A stretch of DNA of 64,000 nt from Octopus vulgaris (Eukaryota). Shown here one piece after another: positions 12,005-27,457 of the stretch. The stretch covers positions 37,820,001-37,884,000 of the forward strand of contig OX597820.1 in assembly GCA_951406725.2 (NCBI GenBank), in the 5' to 3' direction. Within the stretch, counting starts at the first letter, position 1, and each line of letters opens with the position of its first letter. Made by a program: the position numbers and the translations under genes. Under the pieces are notes generated by a model. It made no database searches. It worked only from the letters and a program-made list of their open reading frames with translations, and was not told where the DNA came from.

Positions 12005-12200
12005 GTGTGTGTGTGTTTATCACACCACCGCTTGATAACCGACGTTGCTTTTTTTACATCCCTGTAACAAAAGTGACCGATAAAATAAGCACCAGACTTG
12101 AAACATAAACATTGGGAGAAATTTGTTCAACTAAAAACCCTTCAAGGCAGTACCCCAGCATGACCGCAGCCCAAGTGACTGAAACAAGCAAAAGATATAA
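12005..12200 (+). mobile_element. SINE family A, 3' half (partly duplicated in inverted orientation at 11409-11530)
   Basis: cgcttgataaccga...gaccgataaaataagcacc...ccccagcatgaccgcag...tgactgaaacaag. Confidence 0.85.
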
Positions 12201-12520
12201 CGAGACACGTTGTTGAGCCAACCGCCTGTTTGATAAACGAGATAGAATCGATGTAGTGTTTGATAAACGAGATAGAATGACTTGCTGGTGATTGCAGAAG
12301 GAAGAAAGAAGACAGCACGAAGGTGTGAAAGCGAATAATTGAGAGGCTGACACGAAAAGACCAAGATAAAGAAACGGAACTACAAGTGGAGCTTGATAAC
12401 GAATTAGATAAACGAAGATATTGATATGCGGATGTATACATACAAGTACACGCTTATAAATGATGTATACATCCATACCTATATATTCATGCATGCATAC
12501 GTTTATATATATATATATAT

Positions 12521-12576
<56 letters not shown>

Positions 12577-12681
12577 CGTATGGTACATAGCCAGCTACGA
12601 ACATTAATAGTAGAACGGAGATAGGTACCTAGATAGAGAGGTAGATAGATTAAAAAAATAGAGTAAGAGAGATGGAGGGGA

Positions 12682-12730
<49 letters not shown>

Positions 12731-12919
12731 TGAGAGAGTGAGAGAGAAAGTGTGTGTGCATGAAAGTAAGAGAGAGAGGGAGAATGTGAGGAAAACAATA
12801 TGAGATGTGATAATCAAGGAGATAAGCTTCTTTGCTTGAAGGAATACCGTGTGTTGGTGTATATATGTTACCATGTGTGCGTATATGTGTTTCTCTGTGT
12901 ATGTGTGATAGTGTGTGCG

Positions 12920-12955
<36 letters not shown>

Positions 12956-13064
12956 GTGTGCGTGTGTGTGTATGTTTGTGTATGATGTATATCATTATAC
13001 AATACTCATTTCTGTTTAGTCACATGAATACCTCTAAATGAGGAAATATTACGTCATGTGATAT

Positions 13065-14900
13065 ATTTATGGAAGTGACAGTGATGGTGGTGGTGTCAAT
13101 GTTGACGGTGATAGTGGCGGTTCCGATGGTATTTGTGAAGGCGGTGGTGATGGTGGTGATGGTGGTAGTGATGATACGAGTGGTGGTCGTTGTGGCATTT
13201 GTGGTGACGATGATGTCTGTTAGAGTGATGACAGTGGCTGTGGCGGAATTTTTGGTGACGGTGGTAGTCGTAGTGATGATACTGGTAGTGATGAATTTGT
13301 GGTGAAGATAGTCGTGAGTACACTGGCGATGGTAGTGATAGTGGTGACAGGAGTGGCGGTAGCAGTGGTGGTTGTGGTGGTACTTGTGGTGACGATGGTG
13401 GCGATGAAATGATGATGGTAGTGATGGTGGTTGTGGTGGTACTTGTGGTGATGCTGGTAGTGGTCGTTGTAGAGGTTATGGCAATGGTGGTTGTGGAGTT
13501 GTTTTGCGACGGCGGTGGTATTACAGTGATGGTAGTAGTGGTGGTGGTTGTGATGGTATATTTGGTGACGTTGGTGGTTGTTGTACAGTGATGATGGCTG
13601 TGGTGGTTCCGGTGGTATTCGTGGCGACGGTGGTGGTGGTTGTACAGTGATGATGGTAGTAGTGGTGGTTCCGGTGGTATTCGTGGCGACGGTGGTGGTG
13701 GTTCTATGATGATGATGATAGTAGTGGTGGTATCTGTGGGGACAATGGTGGTGTTAGTGGTGAAGGGAGTGGTGACAGTAGTGGAGATGGTAATGGTGTT
13801 TGTGGTCGTGCATGTGGTGACGATGATGGTGATGGTAGTTACGATGGTAGTGGTGATTGTGGTGGTATTTGTGGTGTCGGTTGTGGCTGTTACAGTGATG
13901 ATGGTAATGGTGATGGTTGTGATGGCATGTTGTCAAGGGTGGTGGTTTTACAGTAATAATGGTTGTAGTGGTGGCTGTGGTGGTATCTGTGGTTGCGGTG
14001 GTGATAGTACAGTGATGCTGATTGTAGTGGTATATGTTGTGACGATGGTAGTTGTATAATGATGATGTTAGTGGTAGTGGATGTGATGTGGTGGTGGTTG
14101 TGGCCATGCTGTGGTAATTGGTGGTGGCAGTGGCTGTAAGGGTACATATGGTGACAATGATAGCGCTGCAATGGTGACGGTGGTTGTGGTGTTGGAACTT
14201 TTTTAGTGGCGATGGTATCTATAGAAGTGCCAGTGGTAGTAATTGTGGCGGTGCTGTTGTAATGGTGCGACGATGGCGGTGTTTGTGGTGTGGTGGTGGA
14301 GTGGCTGAGTTGGTGCAGTCGTAATGGTAGCTGTGCTGGAATGATAACCGAGCAGTCAATGGTGACCGTGCCAGTTGCAGTGGTAGTACCACTGACGGTT
14401 TCTGTGATAGTAGAGGTAAGTGTCGTGATAATGGCGGCGGGTAGGAATACCGGTGGAGGTTGTGGTCAGTGGTATTCGTAGCAATGGTGATGGCAGCGAT
14501 GGGGACAGCGGTGGTGGTAATGGTGATAATGGTGGTGGTGGTGATGGTGATGATGGTGGTGGTGATGGTGGTGGTGGTGGTGGTGATGGTGGTGGTGGTG
14601 ATGGTGGTGATAGATTTGGTGCTGGTGATGATGGTGGAGGTGGTGATGGTGGTGATGGTGTTGGTGGCGGTGATGACTGTGAGAGTGGCGGTGTTGATGA
14701 TGATGATGGCGGCAGTGATTGTGGCGGTGGTGATGGTGGCGGTGGTGATGGTGGTGGTGGAGATAGTGGTGGTGGTGATGGTGGCGGTGGTGATGGTGGC
14801 GGTAGTAATAGTAATGATGGCAGAGATGATGGCGATGGTGACGATGATGGTAGTGGTGATGGTTGTGGCGAAGGTCGTTAGTAATGGCACCGGGAGTGAG
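13065..14900. repeat. About 1.8-kb degenerate (GTG/GAT/GGT)n low-complexity tract
   Basis: Read directly; produces spurious poly-V/M, G/D, T/I and H ORFs. Confidence 0.95.
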
Positions 14901-15267
14901 GATAGTTGTGGAAGTGGTGAATACAATTCTTTTCTAACCAAATATAGAAACTAATACTAGTGGTGTTGCTGGAATATAATAAAGAAATGGAGGAGTGGAT
15001 ATACTTGCTTAAAATGTAAAAAAAAAAAAACCCCCAGAAAAATAACTGATTGTGGTGTAGACGGAGAAGGAAAAATAACTGAGTAATCCGATTTACACTG
15101 GAACTCTTTCGAATAGCACGATTCTATTACACACCCGATTTCTCTCTTCTTATGTATGGATACATATAAGGCATGACTACATACATGCATAAATACATAG
15201 GTGCGTATGTACATACATATATACATAAACATATATACATATGTACATACTTTTAAATGCATACATT

Positions 15268-19711: not shown

Positions 19712-22181
19712 GGAAGTGATATGGCCTCGGACTGTCGTTATGTCACAACAGATCACATACACGGTGTGCGCAAAAACAGACATAAGTGGACGAAGGAAGA
19801 GTACGATACGCTTATTGAATGTCATGAAAGAGCAAAGCTGGAAAGAAGTTGCAGTGTAAGCCGACATACCTTGAAATTCTGGATGGAAAAGGACATGTGT
19901 GCAACGTCGGAAAATAAACTAATGAACCAAGAGTGATATTAGGAGGAAGGGTTGCTTAACTGGAGTAGAACTATCTCGGATTAGTGAGAGTCTGAGAGAT
20001 CCTGCAGATGAGTTACAAAGGATAGTCGGAGTTGAAAACAGAGAGGTAGGAGTTGAAAGCAGGGAGAAGAGTAGACAGGAGAAACGGGGAATAGTGATGG
20101 GGCTGTTAAGGATAAGGAATATGAACTTTATACAGTGAACCCCGATACTGTGGTGGGTGGATATGCAGGGGAAATGAACCAACTAGGTTATGAATTGCTT
20201 GAAATTCAAAGACGACTCATCGACTTGATGAATTCTCCAGAAGAAAAAGATCCCCAAGAATATGAAAAGGGTAGATAGGAGTACGATAAATAAAGTAACA
20301 CGGAGGACATAACACAAACAAGGAATATTCTTCGAGCTATTGCACTACTTGTTGAGGAGAAATTACAACTTAAGAGAACAAAAAATGGTGGAGCAAAAAA
20401 ACCATGGTGGAAACGACGCATTGAAAGGGACATAATGCGGGCAAGGGAAGATCTAGGAAAAACTGAGCAATGGTTAAGAGGAAACTGGAAAAATGAGAAA
20501 AAGACCGACTGAGAAAAATTAGAGAAGAAATATAAAATACGGAAGAACGGGTTTGATGCAGTAAAAGAGTAGCTAAAACAGAGGATCATGAGAAAAGCCA
20601 GAAAATCAGAAGATTTGTGAACAGAAATAAGTAGTTCGATGAGAACAGATTGTTCAAAATAAACCCGAAACGATTCTTCCGAATGTTAGAAGGAGACAAT
20701 GGCAAAATGTTGCTCCTGATGCAAATCAAGCCAAGGAGTTCTGAAGCGGATTATGGGGAAAATTTGTGGTGCATAAAAGGGATGCAATATGGATAGGAAC
20801 TAGGAGGAAAGGAACAAAGAAATATTGTCAAAAGCATGGGTGATATGAAAGAACAAGTGGGTAAAGTGCCTAACTGGAAAGCTCCCGGACCAGATGGGAT
20901 TCATGGTTTCTGGATGAAGAGAAGCCACGCGGTGCATGAAAGACTAGCAGCCCAATTGAATGAGTGTCTCCAGAAAGGTACAGTCCCCACGTGGATGGTG
21001 ACTGGGAGGACAACACTTGTAATAAAAGATAGAAGAAAGGGGAATATTGTGGGAAACTACTGTCCCATAGCATGCCTAAACATAATCTGGAAGATACTCA
21101 CTGGAATATGTGCGTCAAAGACATATATTTTCCTGGCACAGGAAGAAATTCTACTAAGGGAATAAAAAAGATGTAGGAAGAGTTCTCAGGGTACCAAGGA
21201 TCACCTGGACATCGATAAAACAGTTTTGAGGTATTGTAAAAAACATCATACAAGTATGTCTATGGCTTGGATTGACTTTAAGAAGGCATATGATATGATG
21301 CCTCATTCTTGGATCGTTGAATGCCTGCAGATGTTTGGTATTGCTGACAACATCACAACTTTTCTGATGCATAGCACGAAAGAGTGGAGAACTAAATTGT
21401 ACTCAAGTAATGTATTCTTTGGAATAGTTAATATTAAAAGGGGTATCTTCCAAGGTGACTCGTTTTCTCCGTTACTTTTTGTAATTGCACTTAACTTAGG
21501 AAAGTTAAGATGGGTTACCGATGTGGGAAGAAAGGCCCATCATTGAACCATCTGCTGTTTATAGATGACCTGAAATTGTTGGGAAAATCGGAAAAATACA
21601 AAAAGAACGCAAACGCCGCCACGATAAAGTGTGTGCGTATCTTCATTGGCTCTTATGCAGTAAATACCAATATGAAGTAACAGAGAAGTGGTATGAGAAT
21701 GTACTAAGTAAAGTTAAACAGGAGGATGGAAAAGTAACGATACTCTGGGACTATGATTTTCAGACGGATCGTGTAATCGAACACTGTCAACTGGATATTG
21801 TCATATTGAATAAGAGAGATAAAAGCTGTCAGATCATTGATGTAGCCATACCAAATGACATGACTGTTGTGAATAAAAAGGTTGAAAAAAATCATCAAGT
21901 ACTCCGAACTGAAAGTGGAAATGGCAAGACTATATGGAATGCGAGATGGTAACGTAAAGGTGATACCAGTGGTGATCGGAGCGTTGGGCTCAATCCCATT
22001 GAAACTTCAAAACTTCTTAAGGCAACTGGAAATCCCATGCAAAATTGATGTCTTGTAAAAGCAGTCTTATTGGGCACAGCGCACATCTTAAGGAAAGTAT
22101 TATTTGTCTGAAGTGCTTGTTGTGACTTGACAAATGACTAAAGACTCCGGTGCATTTTTACCTACACTATGTTACAAAGCA
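19712..22181 (+). mobile_element. Dong/R4-like non-LTR retrotransposon (RT + RLE endonuclease), decayed and internally deleted
   Basis: HKWTKEE, PWWKRRIE, NWKAPGPDGIHGFW, NYCPIACL, DFKKAYD, RGIFQGDSFSPLLF, NHLLFIDDLKL, RRHDKV..LHW, ILWDYDFQTD, IIDVAIP, LGTAHILRKVL; followed by (TAA)n. Confidence 0.92.
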
Positions 22182-22203
22182 AATAATCATAATAATAATA
22201 ATC

Positions 22204-22258
<55 letters not shown>

Positions 22259-22261
<3 letters not shown>

Positions 22262-23012
22262 TGAAAAATGGAGCTGACCCAAAATGCCGATTCTGTAACG
22301 ATGAGATTGAAACAATAGACCACCTAATCTCAGGGTGTAGAGTCTTAGCACCTGCAGAATATAAAGCAAGACATGACAGAGTCGGCCAGTATTTACACTG
22401 GACAATATGTCGGCATTATAAAATCAAAACCGCAGACAAATGGTATAAACATCATCCTGAAGCTGTGACTGAGGGAGAAAATGTGTCGATTCTATGGGAC
22501 TTCCCCGTGCAGACCGACAGGACTATAAAAGCTAATAAACCGGATATAATTATAAAAGATCAGACAAAAAGGATATGTTTATTAATTGACATGAGTATTC
22601 CCTGTGATCACAAAATAGCGGCGAAAGAATTTGACAAGATTAGTAAATATAAAGACCTGCTAATGGAAATTGGAAAAATGTGGCATCTCAAGGTGACTAC
22701 AGTACCAGTGATTGTAGGATCTCTAGGAATGATAAAAAAAGGTACTGAAACCTATTTGAAAAGGATTCCATCCCTACAGGAAGTGCAAAAAATCGTATTA
22801 ACTGGAACGGCTCATGTACTGAGACGAGCACTATCGCTGTCAAAATAACATCCATCCATGAATTTATTTATTTATTAATTTTTAAATACATATTTTATCT
22901 GTGAATTTGCGCGTGTAATCTGGGAATACATACAATGCCCTTCTCTTCCCTAGGTGTATGGAAAACACTCGGCGAGAAACGGAAGAAAATATGAAGAAAG
23001 AAGGAAAAAACA
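22259..23012 (+). mobile_element. Second, 5'-truncated Dong/R4-like element: open CCHC + RLE endonuclease segment and 3' UTR
   Basis: ORF 22150-22848: CRFC..ETIDHLISGC, RHD, ILWDFPVQTD, KPDII, LIDMSIP, KYKDL, TGTAHVLRRAL; (TAA)n on both sides. Confidence 0.93.
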
Positions 23013-23094
23013 TAATAATAGTAATAATAATCCTTTCTACTATAGGCACAAGGCCTGGAATTTGTGGGAAGGGGATAAGTCGATTATATCAACC

Positions 23095-25395
23095 ACAGTG
23101 CTGCAAATTGGGCGCATTGGAGGAAATCTTTCGAACTTTTTGTGTATTTTAGGGATACCATAAAATACAGGTGCTCTTCTTTCTGACCTTAAAATCCAGG
23201 ATTCGGCCTTATTAATGAAATTGTTTTCCTCCATTTCCAGAATTATTTGTCAAGTTCCTCTCTGTAATAGGGGTTTGGATCAACAGGTAATTTTTCATAT
23301 GAAGTTTTGTCTCTTAAAATTTCTGCACAAACCGACATATACTCACTTTTGTCCATATCCGCCATTTTAATAACAATAGAATCGTTATTAGCTAGACGTC
23401 GGAGTGTGTAACGTTGGGAATTTATGAGGTTATTCCAGGACTTCTTTTCACTTATTTTAAGGCTTTCTCTAATGCCTGTCTGACAAGTGATTCCAGTGGC
23501 GCTTGTGAACTTCCATCCCGAACTTTATCTAGATACCAATTGGAATTCTTTTCAATTCAGTTATGTCATTCCATCTTCATCATTTTTATTTTCAGTTTTT
23601 TTTTCAAACAAATATTCCTACAGCTTTTGGCGGCGGAAAAACTGAAATAGCCCTTGAGTTAGTTTACTCTTGTCGAAATCCTTTGTACTTGGGCAGAAAC
23701 CCAGTCCAAACTCCAAGACTGAAACATCGTCGGGTGAGTTTTAGTTTAGATAAATTTATGACTGACTTATTCTCTAGTGTGATGGATTTTCTTGGGCAAG
23801 TGGTTTTCAGAGTCTTACTCTCATTAGATTTCTGTATACTTTTTGGGCTTGCTTGAAATCTTCACTTAAAACATGGAACTATTGGGTGATAAAATTTGTT
23901 CTGATTGTTCACGTGAGAAGTTATAATTTTTAGTCGTCTTTTTAGGAGTAATTCATTTGTGAGTGGGTGATAGAAAGTTGGCGACTTCTGTAGTTTTTGT
24001 AGACATTTGAGGAAACCTTACTTTCGGGAAAGGAACAAATTTATTGTTTTCGAGGCAATATCTTAAATGTACTCGCATTTTTTACTGATCAAATAAAAAC
24101 TTCTCTGGAGCGTTTCCAACGACCAGTTCAAATTCATACGCCAGGGCAAAAAATCCACAATCATATGCACCAACTTGGAGATTAGTAATATGAACTTGTT
24201 GAACTGTAGGAATTCTTTTTTGTTTGTGGTGAGTACAACATTGTTATTTGTGTTATTAGTTCCTGTGGTACTGGTAAGTTCAAACTGTCATAAATATAAA
24301 CATCTCCGAAAAAACTGGTCTACAAAACAAAATGATTATCCCTGGTGTGATAAATGAACAGCGTGCGGTGTGGATTGTATGTTAGAAATTCCGTGTGAGA
24401 AAAAATGGTTGGTTGTATTTGAATTTCAGGAAAATTTTCTGCTACGATTTTTAACCCGGCGTCAATACGTTTGTCACATAACATTTGTCCTGAAAGTAAA
24501 AACGACTTTTCCTCATATTTTCAAGCAAATGTTCTCAACCAGAATGTTCCCTTGCTCACTGACTCAGAGGAATGGGAAATCAGCTTTTTCGGCTTCTTTT
24601 CCTTTTTTGTCTTCAGGGATGAAATTTCCATTTTTTTCAAAGTCCATCAAAAAATTACACGAATATTTAAATGATTTAAGGAAGAACATACCTGTTCAAG
24701 GACACTCAAATTCTCCTTCATGTCTGCATCAAGCAATACTAATTTTGAACGATAGTGTACAATAATAGCTTCCATTATGTTAAATGAATTTCTCTCACCA
24801 ATCAATTTAAATTTTTGAAGCAACGAATCGTCAGATTGTGACGCACACACTACTATATTTGATGTAAGACCGTCCGGTATAACGTTTTCTAGTTTGCATG
24901 TTTCCAGAAATGATATATGGCTTTTGAATTTAGCACGCAAACGATCAAGTTTTTTAACTGATAGAAATGTCGATTGCTCATTTTCTGATTCGTATTTCAA
25001 TGGTACAAAATCCAGGGTTGGGCTCAACACTGGGGTCTAGCGAAACTAACAGGGCTGACAAGGTAACTAACTGTAAGAAGGAATAAAACGCAAAAGCTGT
25101 CATTTACATTACGATTTTCCTTAGACACCCGGCTGTTTTGGTAACTTCCAGAATTTCTAAATGCTTTAATTCTTATTCGGTGTAACATAAAAATCAATCA
25201 TTTTCCCGCTGGTTGCTCTCGTTCATACTTTAGATCTGAATTTCTATAATTTTGAGCTTTTATCACTTTTTATTTTGAACTCGACAAAGCCAGGCTTCCT
25301 GTCGAAATATCGTTCAACCAATAAAATATCTATTGCAATCGATCGCGCTCTTCCACTTGTCTGCTTACTTTTGTGAAGAGTTACGTCAATCCTTT
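23095..25395 (-). mobile_element. Penelope-like element, decayed, truncated in early RT, with an extra protease domain
   Basis: Minus-strand order: HISFLETCKLENVIPDGL (24647-25030); protease domain; VINLSKLKLT/VLEFGLGFCPS..FFRRQKL; IVIKMAD..DKSEY..YEKLPVDP; FYGIPKIHK..PMRPICS (23095-23234). Confidence 0.88.
24022..24520 (-). pseudogene. Ulp1/SENP-like (clan CE, C48-type) cysteine protease domain inside the PLE polyprotein
   Basis: Hand translation: LLSGQMLCDKRIDAG..ENFPEIQ..YHTRDNHFVL*..VYIYDSLN..[frameshift]..QVGAYDCGFFALAY..FDQ*KMRVHLRYCLENNKFVPFP; His 24332-24334, Asp 24287-24289, Cys 24157-24159. Confidence 0.82.
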
Positions 25396-25405
25396 TAATA
25401 ATAAT

Positions 25406-26029
<624 letters not shown>

Positions 26030-26049
26030 GTAATAATAATAATAATAAT

Positions 26050-27457
26050 TTTTTACGGGTGTTTCTTTTTGTTTTCGTGTTTTTTTGTGGTTGTGAATGT
26101 GTTTGCAAAAATGAGTTATCTTGTGATGAAGATGTTGATGTTGATGTTAGTATTGATTTGTTTTTAAATTCGTGTTGTAACGGATTTTGTTTTTTAACGC
26201 CATGTCTTAGGGCCTTCAATTTCGGCCGTCTCTGTTTGGTTCATATTCAGTCTTTCTCTTATCTCCGACAAAGGCTTTTTGGTGCGCAGTAAATGAGGAC
26301 TTTGCTTTTGCGAGGGCCGAGTCGGAAGAAGGAGGCAGGTGCGAGGTAATAGTTTTTTTCCCACTTTGAGAAGTTGGTAGTAACGGCGGAGAGCTCCGTG
26401 TTTTCTCCACCGTGGGGCAAAAGGCTTTGAGGTAGGTCGAATTCCCCCACAAAAAACACTTCTGTTATTTTTTACTTCTACAGAAACTGGCATCTGTTCT
26501 CATTCCCCGAACAAAAAAATCGGGAATGCGGCTTATTTTTTCTGGCAAAACTATCTGGAATTCCGTTCCTGTTGGATTGTGGGGTGAACTTCACATCCAC
26601 AATCTCCCCATGTTCCTCTAGAATAGCTAAAACCCTCGCCGGATCACGGTGACCCGGCACATTCTTGACTCGAATTCGAGTCAACATTTTACCAATGTAA
26701 TGGAGAATCATTACAAAAGCCAGGGACGTGCAAGTTATAGTAGCCATTCTTCTGGCTTCTTACTCACTGCTGCATATAGCAGCAACCATCCCATGTTGTT
26801 TACTTTTCTGTATGTGTAGGATTGAAGGCCACACATCTTCGAGGTATTTTTTAGTCTCTGCAGAAATAGGAAATTTAAGTTTCCTCTCCTTGCGAGAAAC
26901 ACATTTATAAACAATTGTTCGTCTTTCGGAGTTCTTTTCTCCTCCTCACTAAAGCACATAACACCTGGTTTTATAATGTCTTTCTTGTATTTCAGTGTCT
27001 TATTTTTTAAAGTCACCCACTGAAATAATAGTCCAATTGCTAACGGCTATAGAAAAGGAAGTAGCTTTGGTGAGGTCCATTGTGTTGCCATGATGTTGTT
27101 GTTGTTGGTGGTGCCGTCGTCGTTGTCGTTTTTCTTGCTTTCCACATAATTATCACTGCTATTTTCAATCTTGTTGTTCATGTTACATTTTTTGTTTTCG
27201 AACATCTTATTGCTGATGTTGTTGTTGATACAGTTGCTGTTATTGTAGTTGTTTCTGCTGCTTGTGGTGGTGGCAGTGCTGCTGCTGCTGTTCACATTGT
27301 TGCTGCTGTTGCTGCTGCTGTAGTCGTTGTCGTCGTCATCATCGTTGCTGCTGGAGCTTTTGCACTTGTTACTGACGTCATAGGAACAAGCGGAAATTAT
27401 ATTTCTCTTTGGCGAGAAACTTATTTCACCTTCAGTTTCGTTTCTGTTGTATGACAC
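26050..27457 (-). mobile_element. LINE ORF1 remnant (L1/Tx1-like): low-complexity N-terminus, RRM-like segment, degenerate zinc knuckle
   Basis: TRIRVKNVP...VLAILEEHGEIVDVKF, then CFLWGNSTYLKAFCP (decayed CxxCxxxxHxxxxC); frameshifts and stops. Confidence 0.65.

Follow-up and report, generated by a model that had tools for sequence, protein, structure and literature searches.

What is a Ulp1-like protease doing inside a retroelement, and does it belong to that element at all? The question is raised by a 64,000-nucleotide stretch of Octopus vulgaris DNA (contig OX597820.1 of GCA_951406725.2, positions 37,820,001 to 37,884,000; called the window below), in which positions 23100-25403 are occupied by a dead, 3'-cut copy of a multicopy Penelope-like element (PLE) with its open reading frame (ORF) on the minus strand. 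An earlier note on this DNA, made from its letters alone, proposed a PLE lineage that had captured a protease of the Ulp1 type (clan CE), encoded after the N-terminal domain (N-domain) and ahead of the reverse transcriptase (RT); genomic copies, intact ORFs, profiles, predicted folds and trees all bear this out. The copy is considered to represent a clade of PLEs with a C-terminal endonuclease (EN), ordered leader, 2A-like motif, N-domain, protease, linker, RT, GIY-YIG, in which the protease would likely act as a SUMO/ubiquitin-like isopeptidase; a probability of about 0.6 is given to this reading.

Relatives were collected by phmmer from 1.84 billion representatives; the query was L005, a copy with a naturally open frame of 193 aa, and it gave 911 matches at E<=0.001, 150 of them listed; 109 matches to the RT-EN part of one intact ORF provided a second source. 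Among the matches listed, at least 19 ORFs of 1187-1461 aa carry the N-domain, protease and RT in a single frame, and GIY-YIG motifs follow the RT in 18 of these, so that the single-ORF order sought by the earlier note is complete in 18/19 and present through the RT in 19/19. The full arrangement reads leader, 2A-like ExNPGP, helical N-domain, protease, linker, RT, GIY-YIG; Pfam RVT_1 and/or GIY-YIG are recognized on 9 of 11 long ORFs, and the intact ORFs that were looked up sit on contigs of 3.7-5.4 kb. A word-indexed search for longer homologues had returned one protein only; it was an unindexed search that yielded the intact ORFs. The catalytic His, Asp, Gln and Cys are all intact in each of the 30 RT-bearing ORFs whose match covers all four (36 have any protease match), against 81 of 94 other matches. 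At the level of sequence these ORFs establish that a conserved clan CE domain, complete in its catalytic residues, is fused in frame to the RT-EN of a PLE.

The decayed copies of the octopus give the same picture. When the protease stretch was searched as DNA against the 2.8-Gb genome, 121 first-look candidates appeared, of which 40 were scored, so that the figure is a lower bound: at least 43 scored matches at 78-88% identity. These matches, together with the same motif order in intact relatives, indicate that the protease signature is not due to chance. Of 29 other fetched loci, 28 join the protease to PLE flanks, whether on the N-domain side, on the pre-RT side or, in 15, on both; the exception is one locus with its upstream piece inverted. 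In the reciprocal test 29 loci, partly the same places, were chosen by the pre-RT stretch; eight reach the N-domain, all eight via the protease, and the remainder are 5'-truncated. Longer stretches of 20 copies show the N-domain, protease, RT and GIY-YIG in that order, most fully in L034, L035, L036 and L038, with Pfam RVT_1 matches and weak GIY-YIG matches on their open pieces. The copies are on average ~86% alike (78-97%) and all dead, and the catalytic four are complete in only 14 of 28. Private variants number 303 non-synonymous to 94 synonymous, compared with 22 to 30 for variants common to at least four copies (Fisher p 1.5e-6, recurrent CpG changes included); the shared-variant ratio evidently reflects purifying selection that acted on the protease during the active period of the family. 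An Octopus fragment in UniRef, 74% identical, bears the name 'Ubiquitin-like protease family profile domain-containing protein', which indicates that the PLE family is common to an octopus genome and that automatic annotation caught the domain without the element. A search of sequencing runs found DNA runs under four organism labels at a share of at least 0.2, and no RNA run among the runs listed.

Membership of clan CE is secure on profile and model evidence, and a Ulp1/SENP fold is predicted. A profile of 65 sequences, from an alignment mixing PLE proteases with non-PLE relatives, matched clan CE exclusively among solved structures (PDB; 23/23 matches at E<=1, best 1.1e-5), and its alignment to SENP1 spans W-L-N-D, H-W, Y-D-S and Q-x5-C; 36 of these 65 members match C48 at E<=0.05. 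In the ESM Atlas the first clusters stand at 0.95-0.96 and bear C48 on 17-39% of their members. The Peptidase_C48 check suggested by the earlier note had a divided outcome: the Pfam model exceeds its cut-off (20.7 bits) in four shorter members of the PLE protease clade (P0053, P0030, P0059 and P0045), P0053 scoring 28.9 bits and carrying the PLE pre-RT flank, but matches neither the window pieces (0/3) nor the protease-bearing frames of decayed sister copies (0/7). Single-sequence phmmer against the PDB gave no match for L005 and two irrelevant matches for P0053.

Two AlphaFold models, fold prediction being among the checks suggested in the earlier note, agree on the fold; model 1 derives from the mixed alignment (pLDDT 88.8) and model 2 is of P0010 with a 46-sequence PLE-only alignment (pLDDT 87.6). 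Foldseek aligns model 1 with Ulp1 (E 1.5e-5, TM 0.61) and model 2 with Ulp1-Smt3 (E 6.4e-5). By VIA, model 1 is closest to SENP3 (Z 16.0, rmsd 3.2, 165 aligned), NEDP1 (15.6) and Ulp1 (15.4), and model 2 to SENP3 (16.2), NEDP1 (15.8), SENP1 (15.8), SENP5 (15.3) and Ulp1 (15.3), while the viral processing proteases pS273R, I7L and adenain score 11.6, 10.4 and 9.3 with model 2. Over both models the SENP/Ulp1/NEDP1 matches lie at rmsd 2.7-3.8, bacterial CE enzymes at Z 8-15 and viral processing proteases at 9-12; the leading VIA rows, top 29 and top 23 respectively, are all clan CE.

How such a domain would serve the element is suggested by its neighbours in the ORF. Gly-Gly is absent from the protease-RT linkers of all 19 intact ORFs (2536 aa) and from their 19 upstream junctions; with no place at which it could be cut loose, the protease would remain attached to the RT-EN and travel with the ribonucleoprotein. 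The fused enzyme may strip tags from the element's own protein, sparing it degradation, or alternatively from proteins of silencing and repair present where the target has been nicked. This tag-removing role is proposed because SUMO/NEDD8 isopeptidases are the closest folds, because no Gly-Gly site occurs in 19/19, because an unrelated deubiquitinase fold occupies the same slot in other PLEs, and because transposon repression in Drosophila requires SUMO (PMC7676866; here and below, statements on cited papers refer to the available parts of their text). In plants, Ulp1-bearing VANC proteins are part of the anti-silencing system of Vandal elements (PMC13317346). Should a tag be removed, SUMO has about an even chance of being the one, ubiquitin is a less probable substrate, and NEDD8 an unlikely one.

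Several observations pull the other way. Pfam C48 scores no full-length RT-bearing ORF (0/11 at E<=0.05; 0/3 at E<=0.001), and the strong 23/23 profile result depends on an alignment that includes non-PLE relatives; a profile of 28 PLE-lineage fragments matches solved SENPs no better than E 0.045-0.23, and two WD40 chains rank among them. SENP/Ulp1 enzymes place two tryptophans over the Gly-Gly tunnel, the Trp before L-x-D being its lid. That Trp is found in 0/26 RT-bearing ORFs, and the residue after the catalytic His is F in 21, Y in 4 and W in 5 of 30 ORFs; owing to the absent lid and the altered residue, specificity may differ from that of SENPs. The want of Gly-Gly should also be read with care, since about two would be expected by chance in 2536 aa at 3% Gly (an estimate); the zero therefore speaks for no conserved site, but not for avoidance. 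Finally, knockdown of host Ulp1 raised R1/R2 expression (PMC7676866), which leaves no simple expectation of the direction in which a deSUMOylase would act. The 'deSUMOylase-like' wording of the earlier note thus holds for the predicted Ulp1/SENP-like fold but not for SUMO specificity: the clan is secure, but the substrate is not, since SENP3, NEDP1, SENP1, Ulp1 and SENP5 tie and the tryptophan lid is absent, and the domain is, from its residues, filed as Ulp1-like and not as a SENP.

The alternative that survives best, although it is unlikely, is that the protease is a maturation enzyme cutting its own polyprotein and freeing the RT-EN from the N-domain, in the manner of the clan CE proteases of adenoviruses, poxviruses and Polintons; processing was one of two roles named in the earlier note. 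The position of the protease at a domain junction of a long polyprotein, beside a flexible linker with a conserved W and N-R-F-x-x-L, would suit such an enzyme, and the altered lid residues could admit a site other than Gly-Gly. However, the linkers and junctions that lack Gly-Gly throughout show Ala-Gly in 1/19 only, viral processing proteases score lower than SENP/Ulp1/NEDP1 by 4-7 Z units, the slot is empty of any protease in working PLEs that have this N-domain and RT (P0198, P0200, P0218), and an OTU domain occupies it in a neighbouring lineage; the processing role is disfavoured by the linkers. It is likewise improbable that the enzyme is active in trans in some host pathway that has no part in silencing the element or in its turnover, such as in cullin deNEDDylation or in DNA-repair signalling that favours completion of insertion. 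NEDP1 does tie with the SENPs in both fold searches, and the nearest non-PLE relatives are fused to chromatin- or DNA-linked domains (PHD, SWIM, YqaJ), but fusion to the RT-EN would better fit local action in cis. A passenger or non-catalytic binding module, for which protease activity would not be needed, is very unlikely: all copies in the octopus genome are decayed and half of those compared have lost part of the catalytic four, but this decay fits neutral drift after insertion (the 303:94 private variants), and the four residues are invariant in the 30 intact ORFs despite 45% average identity. That a separate transposon had landed in a PLE here, which the fragmented window copy and the other repeats around it might suggest and which the earlier note had already doubted, is refuted by the intact single in-frame ORFs, by the 28/29 loci with PLE flanks (15 of them on both sides) and by the 8/8 reciprocal loci, and keeps a negligible probability.

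The trees point to a shared history of protease and RT. In a FastTree phylogeny of 110 RT cores (P0235, P0251 and P0259 were left out of 113 for short coverage) all 32 protease bearers fall in one clade of 50, with support of 1.0 and a stem of 0.33; a 57-sequence IQ-TREE subset gives the clade an SH-aLRT of 99.4, and the protease occurs in none of 60 RT proteins outside it. A protease-less branch within the clade was considered and rejected, as all 18 protease-less members start downstream of the slot and lack the N-domain; the protease is present in longer members of two clusters to which protease-less in-clade ORFs belong. All 30 RT-linked proteases likewise group together in the protease tree (0.984), where the basal split of the RT recurs, though the deep nodes of that tree are weak. 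Mean identity over 26 ORFs is 45% for the protease and 50% for the RT, and the pairwise distances of the two are correlated (Mantel rho 0.74; 0/2000 permutations as high). With a single clade in both trees and correlated distances, entry of the protease into the PLE lineage by one old capture is the simplest reading.

The nearest non-PLE relatives, fused to PHD, SWIM or YqaJ domains as in P0122 (SWIM-protease-PHD) and P0138 (protease-YqaJ), tentatively suggest a DNA-transposon source for the protease. Four PLE fragments, P0050, P0066, P0088 and P0102, form a second small group with proteases outside the main PLE protease clade; P0050 shows an HPGP form of the 2A-like motif, and P0066 and P0088 retain W before L-x-D. 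The protease of P0085 (598 aa), with which seven shorter proteins group, is nested in the PLE protease clade and has no Pfam match downstream; what follows it is presumably the start of an APE-type endonuclease, and exchange of the protease with a LINE is possible. A related Ulp1-like domain also closes three polycystin/PKD-channel proteins (P0111, P0139, P0144), of which one has a PHD finger and two have Asn instead of the catalytic Asp; these may be fused gene models or cases of domestication.

The N-domain is modelled as three long helices (model residues 72-213) for which a fold search returned generic helical bundles only (Z under 9); its profile matches eight proteins outside the protease clade, which makes the N-domain older than the capture. 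Three of the outside proteins, P0198, P0200 and P0218, pass from N-domain to RT with no protease match between. P0212 and P0214, likewise outside the clade, have an OTU domain between N-domain and RT, which exceeds the Pfam cut-off and shows both a DGNC and a His motif. OTU enzymes are deubiquitinases, so that two unrelated tag-removing folds would have been captured at one slot. The PLE ORFs of this type comprise P0212, P0214 and P0307, each with N-domain, OTU protease and RT, and GIY-YIG motifs are seen in P0214. A placement of the OTU pair as sister of the protease clade (SH-aLRT 99.8, branch 0.05) is not relied on, given the short branch, the fast search, the long neighbour P0256 and support by SH-aLRT only.

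The intact ORFs open with M-x-D-L-x-x-Y-R-x-R-I-G and a hydrophobic helix, followed by D-P-(S/G/A)-(I/V)-E-x-N-P-G-P. The leader motif is found in 33 proteins, with the helix at model residues 33-56, and, where PLE proteins reach at least 150 residues beyond the protease on its N-terminal side, 30 of 37 have the 2A-like core; the basal branch retains the leader without the core. Outside the clade the core occurs in 0/62 RT proteins, and a recognisable motif is kept in 13 of 30 loci of the octopus genome. Position 12 is S in 14, G or C in 11, A in 3, R in 1 and M in 1 of the 30, the octopus family having S. The StopGo/2A core has been expanded to a functional motif (D/G/C/N)(V/I)ExNPGP (PMC12846837), which the 11 G/C forms fit; Ser, Ala, Arg and Met are not among the residues tested in the available parts of that work. 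D-P-S-I-E-x-N-P-G-P is therefore a candidate for a new StopGo variant, and the NPGP motif may cause ribosome skipping that releases a hydrophobic leader of ~65 residues, or may throttle the protein level.

All of these parts can be followed through the decayed window copy. The motifs named in the earlier note were recovered by translation on the minus strand, but its extent of 23095..25073 is superseded: the ORF begins at an ATG at 25201, an inverted pseudo-LTR lies upstream of it, and the copy ends at 23100, just past PMRPIC. The leader peptide (25038..25201, minus strand), an M-x-D-(L/F)...R-I motif followed by the hydrophobic helix, is frameshifted; the 2A-like, StopGo-like motif DPSVEPNPG (25011..25037, minus) is followed directly after its Gly by a frameshift, where other copies read NPGP. 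The N-domain (24580..25000, minus), with its three long helices and SHISF...C...IPDG motif (SHISF at 24922-24908), precedes the decayed protease (24020..24544, minus), a clan CE, Ulp1/SENP-like domain by sequence, profile and fold evidence. Its LCD begins at 24481, the His codon of HFVL is 24334-24332, the Asp codon of YDSL 24289-24287, and QVGAYDCG holds the Gln and Cys codons at 24177-24175 and 24159-24157; all four catalytic codons are still intact, in a frame broken, as the earlier note had recognized, by stops (24523, 24322 and 24084) and a frameshift near 24215. A linker rich in Ser/Thr/Pro/Asn (23770..24019, minus), without Gly-Gly and with the conserved W and N-R-F-x-x-L degenerate here, leads to the pre-RT and RT N-terminal motifs (23100..23765, minus): SVINLS at 23765, GLGF at 23707, AD, YGIPKIH at 23162 and PMRPIC at 23120. 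The copy is cut before the RT catalytic core and the GIY-YIG, neither of which was found elsewhere in the 64-kb window. An unrelated short repeat (23012..23099, minus) abuts the truncation point and matches many fetched loci independently of the PLE; it is presumably a SINE-like tail.

On the other side of the ORF the inverted pseudo-LTR (25207..25403, plus strand) is a copy of the element's own 3' UTR directed away from the ORF, and its outer end is a (TAA)n microsatellite (25404..25442, plus); (TAA)n/(TTA)n termini also end many other PLE copies. The pseudo-LTR is inverted in the window and direct in other copies, including L003, L007 and L010. Within it a minimal-hammerhead-like motif (25276..25316, plus) has stems and, by pattern, a U3-A8 type core, with C at position 4 where many copies have T; the pattern is matched in 17 of 30 aligned pseudo-LTR pieces with a fold z of -2.84. 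A minimal hammerhead variant of U3-A8 type has been described (PMC4209133), and the pseudo-LTR motif is a candidate for this type; an Rfam search over 22500-26500 gave four chance matches and no hammerhead.

With RT then GIY-YIG in a single ORF and a pseudo-LTR, direct or inverted, the clade has the make-up of C-terminal EN+ PLEs, and by its linker spacing it looks Neptune-like. The two Cys between GIY and YIG form CxxH in 21 of 26 ORFs matched and CxxC in 5, in contrast with the CCHH that is called universal for canonical EN+ PLEs; because this endonuclease hallmark is missing, the clade is filed as Neptune-like and not as Neptune, the RT trees having been built from unlabelled relatives. The CxxC linker between RT and EN is present in 5 of 31 clade ORFs (four basal ones and P0014) and in the octopus copies, and lost in the rest. 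GIY-YIG pieces also adjoin protease copies at L017:2-367, L008:2011-2373, L012:1937-2623 and L025:3-398; some are inverted 3' halves of the protease-PLE family, and the L017 piece is of a different, CxxC-type PLE.

Neptune-type C-terminal EN+ PLEs (Craig et al. 2021, PMC8557442) share the single ORF with RT then GIY-YIG, direct or inverted pseudo-LTRs, a hammerhead-like motif in the 3' repeat (a candidate one in the protease clade) and microsatellite ends and, with the basal members and the octopus family, the CxxC linker and long pre-endonuclease spacer seen in Neptune1_Nv. The protease clade adds to this plan a clan CE protease of ~180 aa between N-domain and RT and a 2A-like leader, in an ORF of 1200-1460 aa, and differs further in the CxxC linker (only 5/31) and the CxxH between GIY and YIG (21/26). 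Chlamys-1_cBra (PMC8557442) is another PLE ORF with a cysteine-protease-like accessory domain of the ubiquitin system; however, this shows weak Josephin-like homology only, has another protease fold and a C-terminal position, and belongs to an algal clade with an N-terminal EN. The non-LTR retrotransposons NeSL and Utopia-1_TSP (PMC4640811) also encode an N-terminal Ulp1-like protease before the RT in a single ORF, but with an R2-group RT and a restriction-like endonuclease instead of a PLE RT and GIY-YIG, and they are nematode-limited. Captured C48-type proteases under selection are known from MULE/Vandal KIU (PMC13317346), CryptonF/S (PMC3212892) and Polintons (PMC10175614), which are DNA transposons whose protease is often in a separate ORF; an OTU domain is reported for Helentrons (PMC6431247).

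Compared with Ulp1/SENP and NEDP1 (PDB 1euv, 2xph, 9gnn, 9me8, 2bkq), the PLE protease is alike in predicted fold (Z 15-16), in the His-Asp-Gln-Cys order and in the L-x-D and D-C-G motifs; it is only 14-19% identical and ~30-40 residues shorter, has no lid Trp, mostly replaces His-Trp by His-Phe and shows an additional invariant His five residues ahead of the catalytic His. The 2A-like sequences of APE-type non-LTR elements (PMC3708506, PMC13405545; also PMC12338488) resemble those described here in that ExNPGP comes behind a hydrophobic stretch close to the N-terminal end of the single ORF, and differ from the PLE consensus D-P-(S/G/A)-(I/V)-E-x-N-P-G-P with its Ser at position 12 in 14/30; Penelope elements do not occur in the available text of PMC3708506 and PMC13405545.

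The earlier note knew of no described PLE with a Ulp1-like domain, and none with Ulp1, OTU or 2A was found in the full-text literature that was searched (Repbase, Dfam, bioRxiv supplements and subscription journals lay outside that search); the available parts of PMC11167929, PMC7599744 and bioRxiv 10.64898/2026.07.22.740005 describe no such element. A motif search of the available supplement text of Craig 2021 (PMC8557442) found no clade-typical peptides, the alignments there being stored as pictures invisible to it. That the architecture is already catalogued in Repbase, Dfam or closed journals is considered rather unlikely. A broader proposal, with the odds somewhat against it as a whole, is advanced tentatively: the PLE slot between N-domain and RT would have been filled at least twice by unrelated tag-removing proteases (clan CE and OTU), and the clan CE clade would be an undescribed old lineage whose RT-endonuclease carries a deSUMOylase or deubiquitinase against the silencing that the host would impose where the element inserts. 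Its hydrophobic leader would be shed by D-P-S-I-E-x-N-P-G-P, a new variant of StopGo and the first to be found in PLEs.

Ulp1-like domains recur across transposon types with their job not shown, as PMC13317346 states for the plant case. PLEs are compact, have a single ORF and possess a published in vitro assay (PMC11167929); the protease clade offers many naturally intact ORFs, and its protease-less and OTU-bearing relatives serve as controls, so that the reason for which SUMO/ubiquitin proteases accumulate in mobile elements becomes directly testable. The clade departs from the textbook RT + GIY-YIG plan of PLEs in three ways: the protease, the 2A-like leader and the CxxH endonuclease motif.

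Elsewhere in the window, a probable array of tandem repeats occupies positions 12054-14950, where the open frames are long and the GC skew is extreme, reaching 0.68. A short decayed frame on the minus strand (26400-26760) reads …MILHYIGKMLTRIRVKNVPGH… then …EVFFVGEFDLPQ… and is taken by us to resemble a LINE ORF1/RRM-type piece. A decayed LINE RT fragment unrelated to the PLE, which we assume to be RTE-like, lies on the plus strand at 20500-22300.

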